A program made the position numbers and the translations under genes. Positions 612 to 6,627 of a DNA stretch of 12,672 nucleotides are shown here, one piece after another. Within the stretch, counting starts at the first letter, position 1, and each line of letters starts with the position of its first letter. Origin of the DNA: a virus; UHGV virus genome UHGV-1790737. The stretch is one strand, 5' to 3'. Under the pieces are notes generated by a model. It searched no databases, had not been told where the DNA came from, and saw nothing but the letters and a program-made list of their open reading frames with translations.

Positions 612-748
612 AATCTTAACTACAATATGATTCATTTTGATGATTGTTTCATAAGGAACAGTGAAGTAAGATCTAAGAGGAGTTAAATTTTATACAGTAT
701 AATCATAATATTGCAGCAAGGTGGTTATAATTGAAAGAATATTTAGAT

Positions 749-2206
749 ATGAATACATCTCATGTAAGAGTTGTTACTCATATGTGTGGGTTCCTGGTTT
801 GGCTCTATAGTCTTTCAATGTTGCCACCAATGGTTGTAGCATTGTTTTATAAAGAAAAAAGCCTGTTCGTTTTCTTTATAACTTTCGTTATATTTTTTTG
901 TATTGGTGGCGGAGCGTGGTATACAACTAAGAAATCTGGCATTCAATTACGTACCCGTGATGGGTTTATTATAATTGTAATGTTTTGGATTTTGTTTTCT
1001 GTTATTAGTGCATTCCCTTTATGGATTGACTCAGAACTTAATTTAACGTTCATTGATGCTCTGTTTGAAGGGGTTTCTGGAATAACAACAACAGGAGCAA
1101 CTGTAATTGATGATGTTAGTTCATTACCTCGGGCATATTTGTACTATCGGTCACAGTTAAATTTTATAGGTGGTTTAGGAGTTATTGTTCTGGCGGTTGC
1201 TGTATTGCCATTATTGGGTATTGGTGGTGCAAAGCTTTATCAGTCAGAAATGCCGGGGCCATTTAAGGATGACAAACTCACTCCCCGCCTGGCCGATACG
1301 TCACGGACACTGTGGATAACTTATTCTTTATTAGGTATTGCTTGTATTGTCTGTTATAGACTTGCAGGAATGCCTTTGTTTGATGCTATTTGTCACGGGA
1401 TTTCCACAGTTTCGCTTGGTGGTTTCTCAACTCATAGCGAGAGTATCGGATATTTTAATAACTATTTGGTTGAGCTGGTGGCTGGTTCTTTTTCCCTGCT
1501 ATCGGCTTTCAACTTCACTCTTTGGTATATTGTTATTAGCAGGAAAACGATAAAACCTTTAATCAGAGATATTGAACTTCGTTTCTTTCTGTTAATAGCC
1601 TTAGGGGTGATCATTGTTACCTCTTTCCAGGTCTGGCATATAGGTATGTATGACTTGCATGGAAGTTTTATTCATTCGTTTTTTCTTGCCAGCTCCATGC
1701 TCACTGATAATGGTTTAGCTACGCAGGATTATGCAAGCTGGCCCACGCACACGATAGTGTTTTTGCTGTTGTCAAGTTTCTTTGGGGGATGTATAGGTTC
1801 AACTTGTGGTGGAATTAAGTCACTTCGATTTCTTATACTTTTCAAACAAAGCAAACACGAGATAAATCAGCTTTCTCATCCCAGAGCGTTGTTGAGTGTA
1901 AATGTAGGAGGGAAGATAGTTACAGATCGTGTAATGAGGTCTGTATGGAGTTTCTTTTTTCTTTATACTCTCTTCACGGTGTTTTTTATACTGGTGTTAA
2001 ATGGTATGGGATATGATTTTCTTACATCATTTGCAACAGTGGCTGCATGTATTAATAATATGGGATTAGGTTTTGGGGCTACTGCATCGTCATTCGGAGT
2101 GCTTAATGACATTGCAAAATATTTAATGTGCATAGCTATGATTCTTGGTCGCCTTGAAATTTATCCTGTTATTATATTGTTTTCAGGTTTTTTTTGGCGC
2201 TCCTAA
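749..2206 (+). CDS. trkG: TrkG, Trk-system potassium uptake membrane protein (TrkH/TrkG family), 485 aa
   Basis: Polytopic membrane protein beginning MNTSHVRVVTHMCGFLVWLYSL..., with GxG-type selectivity-filter-like motifs (TTTGAT, LGGFS, GLGFG). It matches my recollection of Rac-prophage TrkG. The gene and flanks are markedly AT-rich against ~50% GC phage neighbours. ATG at 749 is preferred over the TTG at 731 used by the ORF track. Confidence 0.93.
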   Translation: MNTSHVRVVTHMCGFLVWLYSLSMLPPMVVALFYKEKSLFVFFITFVIFFCIGGGAWYTTKKSGIQLRTRDGFIIIVMFWILFSVISAFPLWIDSELNLTFIDALFEGVSGITTTGATVIDDVSSLPRAYLYYRSQLNFIGGLGVIVLAVAVLPLLGIGGAKLYQSEMPGPFKDDKLTPRLADTSRTLWITYSLLGIACIVCYRLAGMPLFDAICHGISTVSLGGFSTHSESIGYFNNYLVELVAGSFSLLSAFNFTLWYIVISRKTIKPLIRDIELRFFLLIALGVIIVTSFQVWHIGMYDLHGSFIHSFFLASSMLTDNGLATQDYASWPTHTIVFLLLSSFFGGCIGSTCGGIKSLRFLILFKQSKHEINQLSHPRALLSVNVGGKIVTDRVMRSVWSFFFLYTLFTVFFILVLNGMGYDFLTSFATVAACINNMGLGFGATASSFGVLNDIAKYLMCIAMILGRLEIYPVIILFSGFFWRS

Positions 2207-2343: not shown

Positions 2344-3135
2344 ATGAGCGAGAAATTAAAGATAGTCTATCGCCCATTACAAGAATTGTCACCGTATGCG
2401 CACAACGCCAGGACGCACAGCCCTGAGCAGGTGGCACAACTGGTAGAAAGTATTAAGCAATTCGGCTGGACTAATCCGGTGCTGATTGACGAAAAGGGCG
2501 AAATTATTGCGGGTCACGGTCGTGTTATGGCGGCTGAAATGCTCAAAATGGATTCTGTTCCGGTCATTGTTCTGTCTGGCCTGACGGATGAGCAGAAAAA
2601 GGCGTACCGCCTGGCAGATAATCGCCTGCCGATGAATGCTGGCTGGGATGAAGATCTGTTGCGGATGGAGCTGTCGGACCTAATCAATGCTGATTTTGAT
2701 GTCTCCCTGACAGGCTTCATCCCGACAGAAATTGATGAACTGTTGACGGATGTTTTGCCCGGTACAGGAAATGAGGAGGAGCCGTATACGACGAAAATTG
2801 ATACGCCTGTTTATGAGCCGTCGGGCGGTAAACCGGATATCAGTGAACTGTACGACGATACGAAAACGCAGGAGCTGATCAGCCGGATACGTTCGGCTTC
2901 CCTTGAGCCTGATATTGAGAAATTCCTCCTGTGTGCGGCAGAACGTCACACGGTGTTTAATTTCAGCAGAATTGCGGACTATTACGCTCACGCCCCCGCT
3001 GAAATTCAGTGTTTTTTCGAGGAGTCGGCGCTGGTGATCATTGATTATCAGCAGGCTATTGAAAATGGATTTGTCCGGATGACGCAGCGCATGGTGGAGA
3101 TCATGCATGGTGGTGAGGAGGAGGAATATGCGTGA
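2344..3135 (+). CDS. ParB/Srx N-terminal domain protein (ParB-like nuclease/NTP-binding fold) with uncharacterised acidic C-terminal domain, 263 aa
   Basis: N-terminal ~90 aa has the ParB/sulfiredoxin signature, including GHGR (nt 2512-2523) followed by VMAA, i.e. a GxxRxxA-type motif. C-terminal ~170 aa is acidic with no family I recognise. SD-like agga sits 4 nt upstream of the ATG. By position after trkG this corresponds to Rac ynaK, which I recall as a short truncated gene in K-12. Confidence 0.85.
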   Translation: MSEKLKIVYRPLQELSPYAHNARTHSPEQVAQLVESIKQFGWTNPVLIDEKGEIIAGHGRVMAAEMLKMDSVPVIVLSGLTDEQKKAYRLADNRLPMNAGWDEDLLRMELSDLINADFDVSLTGFIPTEIDELLTDVLPGTGNEEEPYTTKIDTPVYEPSGGKPDISELYDDTKTQELISRIRSASLEPDIEKFLLCAAERHTVFNFSRIADYYAHAPAEIQCFFEESALVIIDYQQAIENGFVRMTQRMVEIMHGGEEEEYA

Positions 3136-4060
3136 TGATTTTTGCGCCTTTATTCTGACTCACGGGCGACCGGACAAAGTTCTGACTTACCGGACGTTGC
3201 GTCGTGCTGGCTATACCGGGAAAATTTTTATCGTTGTTGATGATGAAGATAAGACACGGCATCAGTACATGGCTGAATTTGGTGAACAGGTGCTGGTGTT
3301 TTCCAAAACCGATATCGCCAGTCGTTTTGACGAAGCCGATAATTTCTGTGACCGCCGCTCAATTTTTTACGCCCGTAATGCCTGTTTCGACCTGGCAAAA
3401 CTGGTCGGGTGTAAATACTTCATTCAGCTCGATGATGATTATCACGAGTTCCAGTTTCGGGTGGATCGCAACTATGACCAGGCCTATTTCCCGATAAGGA
3501 AACTGGATGCGATCCTTTCTGAAATGCTGGCGTACTACGAATCAATACCTGCTCTTTCCATCGCTATGTCGCAGGGCGGGGATTTTCTTGGTGACAATGG
3601 CGGCCATGCTTCGTGGGTGAAACGCAAGGCAATGAACAGCTTTATCTGTTCGGTTGATCGACCGTTCTCATTCATGGGGCGCATTAACGAGGATGTGAAT
3701 ACGTACACGAATCTCGGTCGCTGTGGTGAATTGTTTATGACGATCGGTGCTGTCCAGTTAGGGCAGAAACAGACGCAGAAAAACAGCGGCGGAATGACCG
3801 AGCTGTATCTGGATTCCGGAACCTACGTTAAAAGTTTTTACTCCGTCATGTATGCGCCGTCGTGCGTAAAAATTTCACTGATGGGTGCCAGCCATAAACG
3901 CATTCACCATCAGGTCACCTGGAACAACGCTGCAGTAAAAATCCTTCACGAAAAATACAGGAAGAAGACACCCTGCATATCAATGGGGGTGACAAATGAT
4001 TCCGTATTCGAAAGTCGAGTCTCTGGCAGCGTGCCGGATGACTGCACAACAAATCGCTGA
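3128..4060 (+). CDS. Uncharacterised 310-aa protein translationally coupled to the ParB-like gene (ydaY-like position)
   Basis: ATG at 3128 is preceded by a strong SD (ggagg, 3117-3121, 6-nt spacing) and overlaps the upstream TGA (3133-3135) by 8 nt. Protein begins MRDDFCAFILTHGRPD and carries acidic clusters (VVDDED, QLDDDYHEF). I cannot assign a family from sequence alone. The ORF-track start at 3107 is rejected in favour of the SD-supported ATG. Confidence 0.8.
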   Translation: MRDDFCAFILTHGRPDKVLTYRTLRRAGYTGKIFIVVDDEDKTRHQYMAEFGEQVLVFSKTDIASRFDEADNFCDRRSIFYARNACFDLAKLVGCKYFIQLDDDYHEFQFRVDRNYDQAYFPIRKLDAILSEMLAYYESIPALSIAMSQGGDFLGDNGGHASWVKRKAMNSFICSVDRPFSFMGRINEDVNTYTNLGRCGELFMTIGAVQLGQKQTQKNSGGMTELYLDSGTYVKSFYSVMYAPSCVKISLMGASHKRIHHQVTWNNAAVKILHEKYRKKTPCISMGVTNDSVFESRVSGSVPDDCTTNR

Positions 4061-4247
4061 CGTTCTGGATGTTGATCTGAACCGACTGAAAGAAAATCGG
4101 GAAGCAATGACAGATTTTTATGCGGCCATCCGTAAGGGCAGAGCGAAAGGTGAAGCCGAGTTACGAGCGGCATTGTTTAAGCTTGCCAGAAAAGGGGATG
4201 CCTTTGCTCTGCGCGAACTACTCAGGGTGGATAAAAATCAGGACTAA
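3996..4247 (+). CDS. Small helix-turn-helix DNA-binding protein (83 aa) immediately upstream of the small terminase
   Basis: ATG at 3996 follows a G-rich SD (gggggtga, 3985-3992). HTH-like segment SLAACRMTAQQIADVLDVD. Its stop at 4245-4247 is 3 nt before the terS ATG. Overlaps the 3' end of the preceding gene by 65 nt; the alternative ATG at 4038 has no SD. Confidence 0.6.
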   Translation: MIPYSKVESLAACRMTAQQIADVLDVDLNRLKENREAMTDFYAAIRKGRAKGEAELRAALFKLARKGDAFALRELLRVDKNQD

Positions 4248-4250
4248 CTG

Positions 4251-5345
4251 ATGAGCAGACCGGACTGGGGGGCGTTGCAGCAGGAGTATATTGCTGAATA
4301 CACCCGCTCCGGTATATCTCCGGTGGCATGGTGTGAAGCAAGGGGACTGAATTACGCAACAGCCCGTCGTTACATCAAAAAAACTCCGAAAAATGCGCAG
4401 ACAGAAATGCGCAAAACTGCGCAAAAAAGTGCGCAGAAAAAATCTGCGCAGACTGCACAAAAGCGGAACGAAAAATCTCAGGAAAAAAAGCCAGTATTCG
4501 ATGCGGGCCTGAATGAGGGCGACGCGGAGGAATTTTCGTTCTGTCCCGATGAATTCGGCATTTCTGACCAGCAGGCTAAGTTTGCGATGCTTGTTGCTCA
4601 GGGTAAAAAGCCGACAGAGGCGTACCGACTAGCCGGTTATGAGGGGCAAGGTGCGACAGCTAACAGCAACGCCAGTCGTATGCTTAGAAATGCCAGGGTT
4701 TATCGTGCTATCAGCTACTTCCGCAATCAGTACCAGAAACGCTATACCGCAGACCTGGATTTACTGGTGAGCCAGTTGATGGTCATTGTCCAGGCCGACC
4801 CCAATCAGTTGGCACAATTTCGCCGTGTTAACTGCCGTTATTGCTGGGGCGAGAATCATCTCTACCAGTGGCGTGATATTGCAGAATTCGATAAGGCTGC
4901 GGCACAGGCCTCCAGAGATGGTAAACCCGAGCCGGAATATGGAGGCCTCGGCTTTGTTGATAACGCCATACCCAATCCGGATTGCCCGAAGTGCTGCGGT
5001 GAGGGAACGGGACAGCTTTATATGGCTGATACCACACTGCTTGATGGGGATGCGCGGCAATTATATGCAGGGTCAAAGCTCGGAAAATACGGTGTTGAGA
5101 TCCTGCTGGAGGATAAGGCTGCCGCCCGGCGTGAATTGTTGCGTTTGCTTTCTGCTGGCGGGGCATTATGTGCAGATAAGCGGCTACAGGAACTGGAAAT
5201 TGAACGGCGCAGAATAGAAAACCAGAAGCTGCACAAAGAGATCGAAACGGTGGAAGATAATGAACATCCCCAGCCTGTGGCGATCAATATTAATGTGGTT
5301 GATGCCAGAGTAAGGAGTGATGAAGATGATCTCTCCGACGCTTAA
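4251..5345 (+). CDS. Terminase small subunit (Terminase_2-like core) with N-terminal HTH, Lys/Gln-rich linker, Cys-cluster region and C-terminal coiled coil, 364 aa
   Basis: Central segment QQAKFAMLVAQGKKPTEAYRLAGYEG...ATANSNASRMLRNARVYRAISYF resembles the small-terminase (Terminase_2) signature as I recall it. It sits directly upstream of, and overlaps, the large terminase. Extra features: CRYC...CPKCC cysteine cluster and coiled-coil tail. Confidence 0.8.
   Translation: MSRPDWGALQQEYIAEYTRSGISPVAWCEARGLNYATARRYIKKTPKNAQTEMRKTAQKSAQKKSAQTAQKRNEKSQEKKPVFDAGLNEGDAEEFSFCPDEFGISDQQAKFAMLVAQGKKPTEAYRLAGYEGQGATANSNASRMLRNARVYRAISYFRNQYQKRYTADLDLLVSQLMVIVQADPNQLAQFRRVNCRYCWGENHLYQWRDIAEFDKAAAQASRDGKPEPEYGGLGFVDNAIPNPDCPKCCGEGTGQLYMADTTLLDGDARQLYAGSKLGKYGVEILLEDKAAARRELLRLLSAGGALCADKRLQELEIERRRIENQKLHKEIETVEDNEHPQPVAININVVDARVRSDEDDLSDA
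4394..4458. repeat. Array of five palindromic TGCGCA hexamers (plus a TGCACA variant) inside the 5' part of terS
   Basis: TGCGCA at 4394, 4408, 4418, 4430 and 4445, and TGCACA at 4453, embedded in A-rich spacers. The array encodes the AQK/AQT-rich linker of TerS. Confidence 0.6.
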
Positions 5346-6627
5346 TGTGCCTCAGGCGCGATTTCTTTCAATGCCCCATAAATTTAAAGCCTATATTGCT
5401 GGTTTTGGCTCGGGCAAAACATGGGTTGGGTGTGGCGGCATATGCAAGGGGATTTGGGAGCATCCAGGTATAAATCAGGGATATTTTGCGCCAACGTATC
5501 CCCAAATTCGCGATATTTTTTACCCTACAGTGGAAGAAGTTGCTGCTGACTGGGGATTGAACGTAAAAATTAATGAGGGAAATAAAGAGGTTCACTTTTA
5601 TTACGGACGCCAGTATCGGGGAACCACTGTCTGCAGATCGATGGAGAAGCCACAAACGATCGTCGGTTTCAAAATTGGTAATGCGTTGGTGGATGAACTG
5701 GACATTTTGCCGAAGGAAAAAGCCAGAACGGCGTGGCGCAAGATAATTGCACGTATGCGTTATAAGATTGATGGACTTCGCAACGGTATTGACGTTACAA
5801 CCACGCCGGAAGGATTCAAATTTGTCTACGAGCAGTTTGTTAAAGCCGTGCGTGAAAAAACAGAGCTGGCCTCACTGTATGGTCTGGTGCAGGCATCTAC
5901 TTTCGATAATGAAAAGAACCTGCCAGCAGATTACATTCCTTCGCTTCTTGAATCATACCCTCCAGAGCTGATTAAAGCCTATCTTCGAGGACAGTTTACT
6001 AACCTGACAAGTGGTACTGTTTACCATCAGTTTGACCGGAAACTGAATAATTGCGAAGAAGTGGAGCAGCCAGGGGAGCCGATTTATATTGGGATGGATT
6101 TTAACGTTGGAAAGATGGCGGGAATCGTCCATGTGCTGCGTTTGGGGCTTCCATGTGCGGTAACTGAAATCATCAATGCCTACGATACGCCGGATATGAT
6201 CCGCCTCATTAAAGAACGCTTCTGGCTGTATGATGGGAATGATTACCGGAAAGTGAGGGAAATTTATATTTATCCAGATGCTTCCGGGGACTCCAGAAAA
6301 TCAAGTAACGCAAGTACGACGGATATAGCCCAGCTTAAGCAGGCTGGTTTTAACGTTGTGGTGAACAGCTCGAACCCGCCAGTAAAAGATCGCGTTAACT
6401 CAATGAATGCAATGTTCTGCAATGCCAATGGTGAGCGTCGCTATAAAGTTAATGTGAAGCGTTGCCCGTTATATGCCGAATCTCTGGAGCAACAGGTCTG
6501 GGATGAGAAGGGGGAGCCTGATAAAAAATCTGGCAATGATCACCCGAATGATGCCGGAGGTTATTTCATCGTTAAGCAATTCCCTATTGTCAAACCGACC
6601 GGAAGAGTCACATCACTTCGGATTTAA
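5326..6627 (+). CDS. Terminase large subunit (ATPase/nuclease), about 433 aa
   Basis: Walker A-like motif AGFGSGKT near the N-terminus, acidic motifs in the C-terminal half consistent with a nuclease domain, and position after terS. SD aggag (5313-5317) favours ATG 5326 over the in-frame GTG 5317 and ATG 5320. Overlaps the terS stop. Confidence 0.88.
   Translation: MISPTLNVPQARFLSMPHKFKAYIAGFGSGKTWVGCGGICKGIWEHPGINQGYFAPTYPQIRDIFYPTVEEVAADWGLNVKINEGNKEVHFYYGRQYRGTTVCRSMEKPQTIVGFKIGNALVDELDILPKEKARTAWRKIIARMRYKIDGLRNGIDVTTTPEGFKFVYEQFVKAVREKTELASLYGLVQASTFDNEKNLPADYIPSLLESYPPELIKAYLRGQFTNLTSGTVYHQFDRKLNNCEEVEQPGEPIYIGMDFNVGKMAGIVHVLRLGLPCAVTEIINAYDTPDMIRLIKERFWLYDGNDYRKVREIYIYPDASGDSRKSSNASTTDIAQLKQAGFNVVVNSSNPPVKDRVNSMNAMFCNANGERRYKVNVKRCPLYAESLEQQVWDEKGEPDKKSGNDHPNDAGGYFIVKQFPIVKPTGRVTSLRI

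Follow-up and report, generated by a model that had tools for sequence, protein, structure and literature searches.

The virus genome UHGV-1790737, of which we analyzed a stretch of 12,672 nucleotides (hereafter the window), carries within the 5' part of its small-terminase gene, terS, a cluster of five exact copies of the palindromic hexamer TGCGCA and one variant copy, embedded in A-rich DNA. We conclude that this cluster is probably a P1-like pac recognition array, the packaging initiation site of a headful-packaging, Rac-like prophage. The initial annotation had proposed it as a candidate site for pac and for recognition by the small terminase subunit (TerS), and that proposal is supported by the clustering of the hexamers, by their conservation at the DNA level, and by their constant pairing with an N-terminal TerS domain that resembles the N-terminus of the P1 protein PacA; it is from these patterns that we infer the function. 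Our best hypothesis is that the array represents a variant of the P1-type hexamer pac element that is independent of Dam, consists of a single cluster of TGCGCA and is fused to a TerS of the Terminase_2 family.

In the arrangement we envisage, TerS would consist of a 44-amino-acid PacA-like domain tethered by a disordered linker of ∼55 amino acids to a Terminase_2 oligomerization core. Several tethered domains of one TerS oligomer would bind the five to six TGCGCA hexamers cooperatively, with the bound hexamers lying in the DNA that encodes that same linker, and the specificity of binding would come from avidity. Recruitment of the large subunit (TerL) would follow, and its cut close to the array would start a headful packaging series. 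That the domain binds the hexamers and that this binding initiates packaging we infer, as we do the stoichiometry, where the DNA is cut and the direction in which packaging runs. The gene order fits a pac phage: terS is followed by terL and then by genes for a DUF4055 protein taken as the portal, a MuF-like protein, a DUF6651 protein taken as the scaffold, and a P22-type coat protein. The closest relatives of the window TerL (40–51% identical) are those of Kagunavirus, Jerseyvirus and Dhillonvirus siphophages, which we take to package by headful, and the relatives of the TerS core include that of phage F116, presumably a generalized transducer.

The hexamer array and its conservation as DNA

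Exact TGCGCA copies start at positions 4394, 4408, 4418, 4430 and 4445 and are followed by the TGCACA variant, as the initial annotation had described; it had also placed the start of the array correctly at 4394, although the variant ends at 4459 and not at 4458. The start-to-start spacings are 14, 10, 12, 15 and 9 bp, a range of 9–15 bp instead of the 10–15 bp given earlier. The array occupies nucleotides 144–209 of the 1095-nucleotide terS open reading frame (ORF) and encodes amino acids 48–70 (NAQTEMRKTAQKSAQKKSAQTAQ); this is the 5' fifth of the gene.

The clustering is real and highly non-random. Five exact copies fall within 57 bp, with four more in the remaining 12.6 kb, and while the total of nine is not unusual against a dinucleotide-shuffle mean of 5.8, TGCGCA is the sole non-homopolymer hexamer with five copies inside 65 bp anywhere in the window. 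A 40-kb Rac-like prophage of Escherichia coli 14EC029, in which the order recE, kilR, racR, trkG leads to terS and then to tail genes, has a terS 5' region identical to that of the window; it contains 15 TGCGCA, five of them in the array, and no second cluster. With a background of 10 copies per 40 kb, the Poisson probability of finding at least five in one 65-bp interval is ∼9e-12. A similar density of TGCGCA elsewhere had been named beforehand as an observation that would speak against a pac site, and the hexamer is not similarly dense elsewhere in either the window or the 40-kb prophage.

The hexamer is kept irrespective of the reading frame that passes through it. Four exact copies and the variant in the window are read as xxT-GCG-CAx (Ala-Gln), and the copy at 4408 is read as aTG-CGC-Aaa (Met-Arg-Lys). 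Klebsiella phages whose TerS is 38% identical to that of the window have six copies at the same place in all three frames (encoding TAQ, LRT and CA), and among 108 unique loci the T of TGCGCA is at codon position 3 in 379 instances, at position 2 in 88 and at position 1 in 15. When nucleotides 120–300 were re-coded synonymously with the phage's own codon usage (2000 shuffles per locus), the window sequence yielded a mean of 0.73 copies compared with the five observed, a number reached by 0 of 2000 shuffles; re-coding of 13 diverse loci gave 0.2–1.0 copies against 3–7 observed, and again none of 2000 shuffles reached the observed count at any locus. In the adjacent part of the gene, which encodes a helix-turn-helix (HTH)-like domain, only about half of the conserved residues have the same codon in the window as in distant loci (3/18 for Brenneria).

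Outside the hexamer there is little constancy. The spacers are 7–16 bp long and differ in length and sequence both within and between arrays, and the flanks of the hexamers are A-rich with a weak preference for C at −1 (53% of copies) and a purine at +1 (88%). Because only the hexamer is kept and the spacers vary, homogenization of a whole repeat unit by concerted evolution is disfavored. Judged by the reading frames and the re-coded sequences, the array is under selection as DNA and not as peptide. The AQK-rich peptide in the linker is best read as incidental, the outcome of translating TGCGCA and A-rich spacers in whatever frame they happen to occupy; the earlier suggestion that the array accounts for this odd linker thus survives, with a motif kept in three frames beyond the needs of the peptide.

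The N-terminal domain that accompanies the array

Just upstream of the array, terS encodes a three-helix, HTH-like domain that is probably homologous to the N-terminus of PacA. A profile of this domain aligned by hhalign with residues 3–40 of P1 PacA gives a probability of 79% and an E value of 1.6e-5, and the N-terminal 95 amino acids of the window TerS match phrog_1711, the PacA family, with E 3e-6; P1 PacA itself defines phrog_1711 (E 4e-202) and in turn matches phrog_370, a family of small terminases from Shiga-toxin-converting (Stx) and Aeromonas phages. We regard the homology as probable rather than certain because the match is short. An AlphaFold model of TerS residues 1–95, built on 45 sequences, has helices at 6–20, 24–30 and 35–38 with 10-residue block means of the predicted local distance difference test (pLDDT) of 74–89 over residues 1–40; it is without secondary structure past residue 38, and block means fall to 51–60 from residue 41. 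The structures nearest to this model in a Foldseek search, none of them significant, are almost all HTH DNA binders. Searches of the N-terminal 95 amino acids against Pfam and NCBIfam gave no family above threshold, only a sub-threshold match to an HTH of the IS66 TnpA type. The Terminase_2 core carries an HTH of its own, to which the PacA-like domain is an addition. P1 pac is a 161-bp segment inside pacA in which seven TGATCA/G hexamers are needed for pacase action (PMC10028697, PMC11260489), and P1 packaging is lowered about 9-fold when the hexamers are disrupted synonymously (PMC10028697).

The domain and the array travel together over a considerable range of phages. Scans of a 44-amino-acid domain profile against IMG/VR (80 loci) and against one genome per GTDB species (75 loci) found matches in Escherichia, Shigella, Salmonella, Klebsiella, Enterobacter, Citrobacter, Serratia, Pantoea, Providencia, Xenorhabdus, Brenneria and others; domain and array occur together in IMG/VR prophages and in ∼70 Enterobacterales species. 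Between three and nine TGCGCA copies occur in 101 of 123 unique related sequences, with the first hexamer at nucleotides 134–149 of the ORF, 6–18 nucleotides after the domain. The terS 5' region of the window is itself present in 914 of 5426 complete E. coli genomes, and a terS with 97% identity belongs to the prophages of Salmonella phage SPF_0923 and Escherichia phage vB_EcoS-666R9. Farther afield, Aeromonas phage phiARM81mr has a domain 58% identical to that of the window and seven copies, and a divergent terS of the phrog_1206 family (locus L174, on a contig of 57% GC, beside a PF03354/PF20441 TerL) encodes the domain as DWHAIEADF...STLRKRI and has five to six TGCGCA from about nucleotide 140, in the same layout as in the window terS. 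Three relatives (L082, L109 and L145) contain a further set of copies that stand farther apart.

The class of hexamer varies with the subtype of the domain, as judged by its putative recognition helix. Loci with the helix A-R-R-[YH] (95 unique loci, one of them A-H-R-Y) have a mean of 3–8.5 TGCGCA and essentially no TGCGAA. Those with A-K-R-[YH] (13 unique loci) have, as means per helix class, 3–5 TGCGAA(T) and 1–2 inverted TTCGCA, often as the palindrome TGCGAATTCGCA, and almost no TGCGCA. The helix NTARTRIKM of Stx-converting phages of the 933W/VT2-Sakai type (>200 records) is accompanied by four copies of (C/T)GATCAT(G/A)A with a 12-bp period, encoding IDHEIDHKTDHEIDHD. Serratia fonticola harbors both the TGCGCA class (L095) and the TGCGAA class (L099), and clusters of C-terminal cores formed at ≥45% identity are mixed for hexamer class; class therefore follows the N-terminal domain and not the host or the rest of TerS. 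The Arg/Lys position of the helix was considered as a recognition code and rejected, since P1 PacA has an A-R-R-Y helix yet its hexamer is TGATCA.

Domain and array are found with Terminase_2 cores from several clusters, with phrog_370 cores, with a phrog_1206 TerS that accompanies a PF03354-type TerL, and in PacA; on this distribution, the combination is independent of the TerS core and of the TerL family. It is plausible that the PacA-like domain, together with a hexamer array in its own linker DNA, constitutes a portable packaging-specificity cassette, acquired by four or more small-terminase families that are unrelated to one another and work with different TerL types, with the hexamer class serving as an address label. 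The four families would be phrog_51/Terminase_2, phrog_370 (Stx phages), phrog_1206 and PacA, and the four hexamer classes TGCGCA, TGCGAAT, GATCAT and TGATCA.

Points against a pac site and rival explanations

Several observations weigh against interpreting the array as a P1-like pac site. The relationship to PacA is based on ∼38 aligned residues at the 79% probability given above, and a Foldseek search of the N-terminal model against the PDB found nothing significant (best E 0.7). Features of P1 pac are absent: there is no GATC between 4078 and 5098, no match to the IHF consensus with up to one mismatch between 3425 and 6830, and instead of two groups of hexamers there is a single cluster of 5–6 copies in 66 bp, beginning ∼12 nucleotides after the domain. 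The spacings of the hexamers (7, 9, 10, 12, 14 and 15 bp) are without helical phasing. In the closest clade, 61 loci that align in register, copies 2, 4 and 6 are polymorphic, and variable positions are about equally frequent in the hexamers (5/36 sites) and in the spacers (8/41). The correlation of domain subtype with hexamer class, and their co-inheritance, may in part be due to linkage and to a small number of ancestral events instead of co-adaptation, as domain and array are adjacent and independent hexamer switches are few; the A-R-R-Y helix of P1 PacA also means that the Arg/Lys position alone is no recognition code. Literature searches found no description of the array and no mapped termini for any phage carrying domain and array.

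A reverse scan of IMG/VR for TGCGCA clusters (three copies, gaps of at most 10 nucleotides) also bears on this question. The domain adjoins 73–76 of the 121 clusters sampled (60–63%), and 45–48 of the 121 in viral contigs are without it, which is a further point against the pac reading. The domain-less clusters are of two kinds, perfect tandem repeats inside unrelated ORFs (collagen-like GAQ, AAQ or DAQ) and intergenic arrays in other phages. Several viral contigs (L270 1892–1960, L212 1119–1190, L287 1554–1625, L228, L258, L276 and L291) have 4–5 irregularly spaced TGCGCA copies that are apparently non-coding, with no PacA-like domain detected nearby; these may be binding sites of other proteins or pac sites that have been split from terS.

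The polymorphism of copies 2, 4 and 6 may indicate that individual hexamers are dispensable, or that many of these prophages are decaying or defective. The array region is prone to mutation: in E. coli PSJ-36 an extra copy of a 10-bp unit, TGCGCAAAAC, of which hexamer 2 is the left end, frameshifts terS into a pseudogene (L002 1640–1700), and frameshifts in A-runs break the region in several genomes (L061, L112, L117 and L125). A protein search with a 45-amino-acid profile yielded nothing but short ORFs, 182 of 44–79 amino acids with P0001–P0120 among them, that represent terS truncated or frameshifted in the array, an indication of the frequency with which this region is disrupted or mis-called; homopolymer sequencing errors may explain some of the A-run frameshifts and truncations. 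In phage Rac-SA53 (L005 1450–1560), annotated as a 'gpO-terS fusion by deletion', the junction is exactly at hexamer 2 and the fusion has lost the PacA-like domain and the first hexamer, so that this phage would be packaging-defective if the pac hypothesis is true.

Among the alternatives, it is unlikely that the array is a regulatory operator through which the TerS N-terminal domain or some other regulator controls terS and terL, by roadblock autoregulation or late-gene timing, with no role in marking DNA for packaging. A motif maintained as DNA beside an HTH-like domain would fit such an operator equally well, and binding sites within a factor's own gene are compatible with autoregulation. 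However, in P1 the homologous domain is part of the pacase, and the hexamers make up pac (PMC10028697). Moreover, the combination is confined to the N-termini of small terminases, of at least four families, and does not occur with other regulators; in 11 loci with at least five TGCGCA or a DW...[RK][RK] motif that were inspected individually, domain and array are in terS ORFs only.

We consider it similarly improbable that the array is bound by a different protein, whether a host nucleoid or regulatory protein, the ParB-like protein encoded upstream, or the product of a small HTH-like ORF at 3996–4247. The window does encode a ParB_N protein and this small ORF just upstream of terS, but Klebsiella, Yersinia, Providencia, Stx and Aeromonas phage loci retain the array without these genes and have lysis genes in front of terS. 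A host factor is further disfavored by the presence of different hexamer classes in prophages of one species, where the class tracks the subtype of the TerS domain.

That the self-complementary hexamers act by pairing in the terS transcript, tuning its translation or stability, is very unlikely. The 101-nucleotide segment of the window folds at −31.7 kcal/mol (z = −5.9 relative to shuffled sequences), and relatives of the TGCGCA class have z scores of −3.1 to −4.4; any set of GC-rich palindromes is nevertheless expected to fold strongly, and the copies that pair vary from locus to locus. The TGCGAAT class, with z scores of −0.6 to −3.3, and the Stx class, with −1.5, fold less convincingly despite the same architecture, and many TGCGAAT copies are direct repeats that are unable to pair. 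Compensatory changes cannot be observed because the hexamers are invariant.

Least likely is a low-complexity repeat without DNA function, generated by slippage, coding for a flexible Ala/Gln/Lys linker and owing its similarity among loci to common descent or concerted evolution. The weak tandem periods that TRF reports (10, 12 and 36 bp), the 10-bp duplication in one E. coli strain, the many truncated or frameshifted ORFs that stop in the array and the predicted disorder of the linker are in its favor, but it appears largely refuted by the different peptides encoded in the three frames (AQ, M/L-R-K/T and CA), by synonymous shuffles that never match the observed counts, by the retention of the hexamer alone rather than of a unit with its variable spacers, and by its persistence across genera in which neighboring synonymous sites are randomized.

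Gene layout, implications and comparison with known packaging systems

The coordinates of the array and of the packaging genes are collected in the table. TerS passes the gathering threshold of Pfam Terminase_2 (PF03592; E 3.5e-8, 34.6 bits against a cut-off of 26.1), its relatives reach E 6e-29 with the same model, and it matches phrog_51, 'terminase small subunit', with E 8e-76. The linker differs in length and sequence among TerS relatives. The match to Terminase_2 is split by an insertion of ∼85 amino acids with the pattern CxxC...CxxCC (C195, C198, C245, C248 and C249; residues 195–249, positions 4833–4997), which looks like a zinc ribbon.

Features of the array and packaging genes in the window (positions count from the first nucleotide of the window).
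Feature	Position	Strand	Remarks
terS, small terminase subunit, 364 amino acids	4251..5345	+	Terminase_2 and phrog_51; identical RefSeq sequence annotated as terminase small subunit
Putative PacA-like three-helix (HTH-like) N-terminal domain, residues 1–44 (MSRPDWG...NYATARRYIKK; MSRPDWGALQQEYIAEYTRSGISPVAWCEARGLNYATARRYIKK)	4251..4382	+	hhalign, PHROG, AlphaFold
Low-complexity linker, residues 45–100	4383..4550	+	Array in first half; between N-terminal domain and Terminase_2 core
Whole hexamer array	4394..4459	.	5 exact TGCGCA and 1 decayed copy, A-rich spacers
Hexamer 1, TGCGCA	4394..4399	.	Kept in 61/61 close relatives in register
Hexamer 2, TGCGCA	4408..4413	.	Other frame (Met-Arg-Lys); TGTGCA in 17/61 and TGCGTA in 2/61 close relatives
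Hexamer 3, TGCGCA	4418..4423	.	Kept in 61/61 close relatives
Hexamer 4, TGCGCA	4430..4435	.	TGCGCG in 14/61 close relatives
Hexamer 5, TGCGCA	4445..4450	.	Kept in 60/61 close relatives
Hexamer 6, decayed to TGCACA in the window	4454..4459	.	Exact TGCGCA in 34/61 close relatives, TGCACA in 27/61
Terminase_2 core, residues 122–316, with Cys4 insertion	4614..5198	+	Pfam profile positions 19–129 of 141
terL, large terminase (nuclease/ATPase)	5317..6627	+	Terminase_6N E 1e-32, Terminase_6C E 5e-10

The start of terL overlaps the end of terS by 20–29 nucleotides (5317–5345), depending on whether GTG 5317, ATG 5320 or ATG 5326 is used, the last being the equivalent of the RefSeq start; the overlap suggests translational coupling. 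Upstream of terS are a trkG-like gene, a ParB_N gene, a glycosyltransferase gene and the small ORF. The last of these, at 3996–4247 (+), encodes 83 amino acids directly upstream of terS (69 amino acids and 'hypothetical' in RefSeq) and matches positions 145–218 of phrog_309, 'terminase small subunit', with E 8e-23. Its product may be either a remnant or an HTH-like protein accessory to packaging, and the Klebsiella, Yersinia and Stx loci lack it. Genes for a ParB_N-domain protein (2344–3135, +) and a TET-associated glycosyltransferase (TAGT, PF20691, E 3e-35; 3107–4060, +) separate trkG from the packaging genes and may form a DNA-modification module of Rac-like prophages; the window contains no TET/JBP gene. 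The TrkH/TrkG-type potassium transporter gene at 731–2206 (+) seems to be a moron, as in the Rac prophage of K-12; in the matching E. coli prophage it is annotated as trkG and is flanked by the lysis genes and the ParB-like gene.

Experimentally known pac sites are limited to a handful of headful phages, and the site of ES18, for example, is still unknown (PMC11260489); this restricts how well generalized and lateral transduction can be predicted and packageable phagemids designed. If the interpretation of the array as pac is correct, pac could be located by a simple sequence rule, a PacA-like N-terminal domain followed by 4–7 hexamer copies, not only in Rac-like prophages but also in Stx-converting phages and many prophages of Klebsiella, Enterobacter, Serratia, Yersinia, Providencia and Aeromonas. 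Were the portable cassette also real, pac could be read from sequence in hundreds of prophages, including Shiga-toxin phages and those in about one-sixth of complete E. coli genomes; phages able to cross-package, and plasmids or islands open to mobilization, could be predicted, and P1-style recognition would be seen to work without Dam control. The array is also a clear case in which a DNA signal dictates the sequence of a protein segment and not the reverse, and the pairs of domain and hexamer offer a natural series for studying HTH specificity.

Comparison with characterized packaging systems places the array closest to P1. The initial annotation had taken P22 and SPP1 as precedents for a pac site of repeated motifs inside terS; the apt precedent is P1 pac. 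Like the window, P22 has pac inside the small-terminase gene of a headful-packaging phage with a P22-type coat, but its site is a single, non-repeated, asymmetric sequence of ∼22 bp in gene 3, its TerS belongs to another family, and the P22 pac sequence AAGATTTATCTGAAGTC (a P22-type site of ∼17–22 bp) has no match in the window with up to three mismatches. At the R-sites of lambda cosB, bound by the winged HTH of gpNu1, and at pacL and pacR of SPP1 and SF6, bound by G1P, oligomeric small terminases use an N-terminal HTH to position TerL, through several short sites, repeated or bent, that lie near or within the gene of the small terminase itself. Lambda is a cos phage with 16-bp R elements, and recognition in SF6 and SPP1 has been reported to be largely sequence-independent. 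The window would share the principle with these systems, but the HTH is of another family, the motifs differ and there is no sequence similarity.

The small terminases of the Stx phages 933W and VT2-Sakai (phrog_370) are nearer, with an N-terminal domain 51% identical to that of the window and a repeat array directly after it in the linker DNA (L168 1330–1385 in VT2-Sakai terS). They differ in having a GATC-containing motif, as in P1, with a strict 12-bp period, and a C-terminal core without a Pfam match. The GATCAT array of the Stx phages is likely an unrecognized pac element; our literature searches found no description of it as pac.

P1 pac differs from the array in the window in several respects. 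Its hexamer is TGATCA/G, whereas TGCGCA contains no GATC, and the array lies in a GATC-free stretch of 1 kb (4078–5098), around and downstream of it, in which ∼4 sites would be expected (49 per 12.7 kb); with no GATC in or within ∼300 bp of the array, control by Dam methylation is precluded. The P1 hexamers form two clusters (HEX4 and HEX3, of four and three copies) that are ∼90 bp apart and flank an IHF site and the cut sites, and the first of these groups begins ∼70 nucleotides after the domain-coding sequence. The proteins differ as well: the window TerS has a Terminase_2 core in place of the PacA body, and its TerL is of the Terminase_6 type in place of PacB. What the two systems have in common is the arrangement itself: a palindromic hexamer is repeated in a cluster early in the recognition-subunit gene, after the stretch that encodes an N-terminal HTH-like domain. 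In both, the hexamers force an odd peptide upon the protein, with 'DH' repeats in P1 (IIDHSNDQHAGDH) and in the Stx phages, and 'AQ' repeats in the window.

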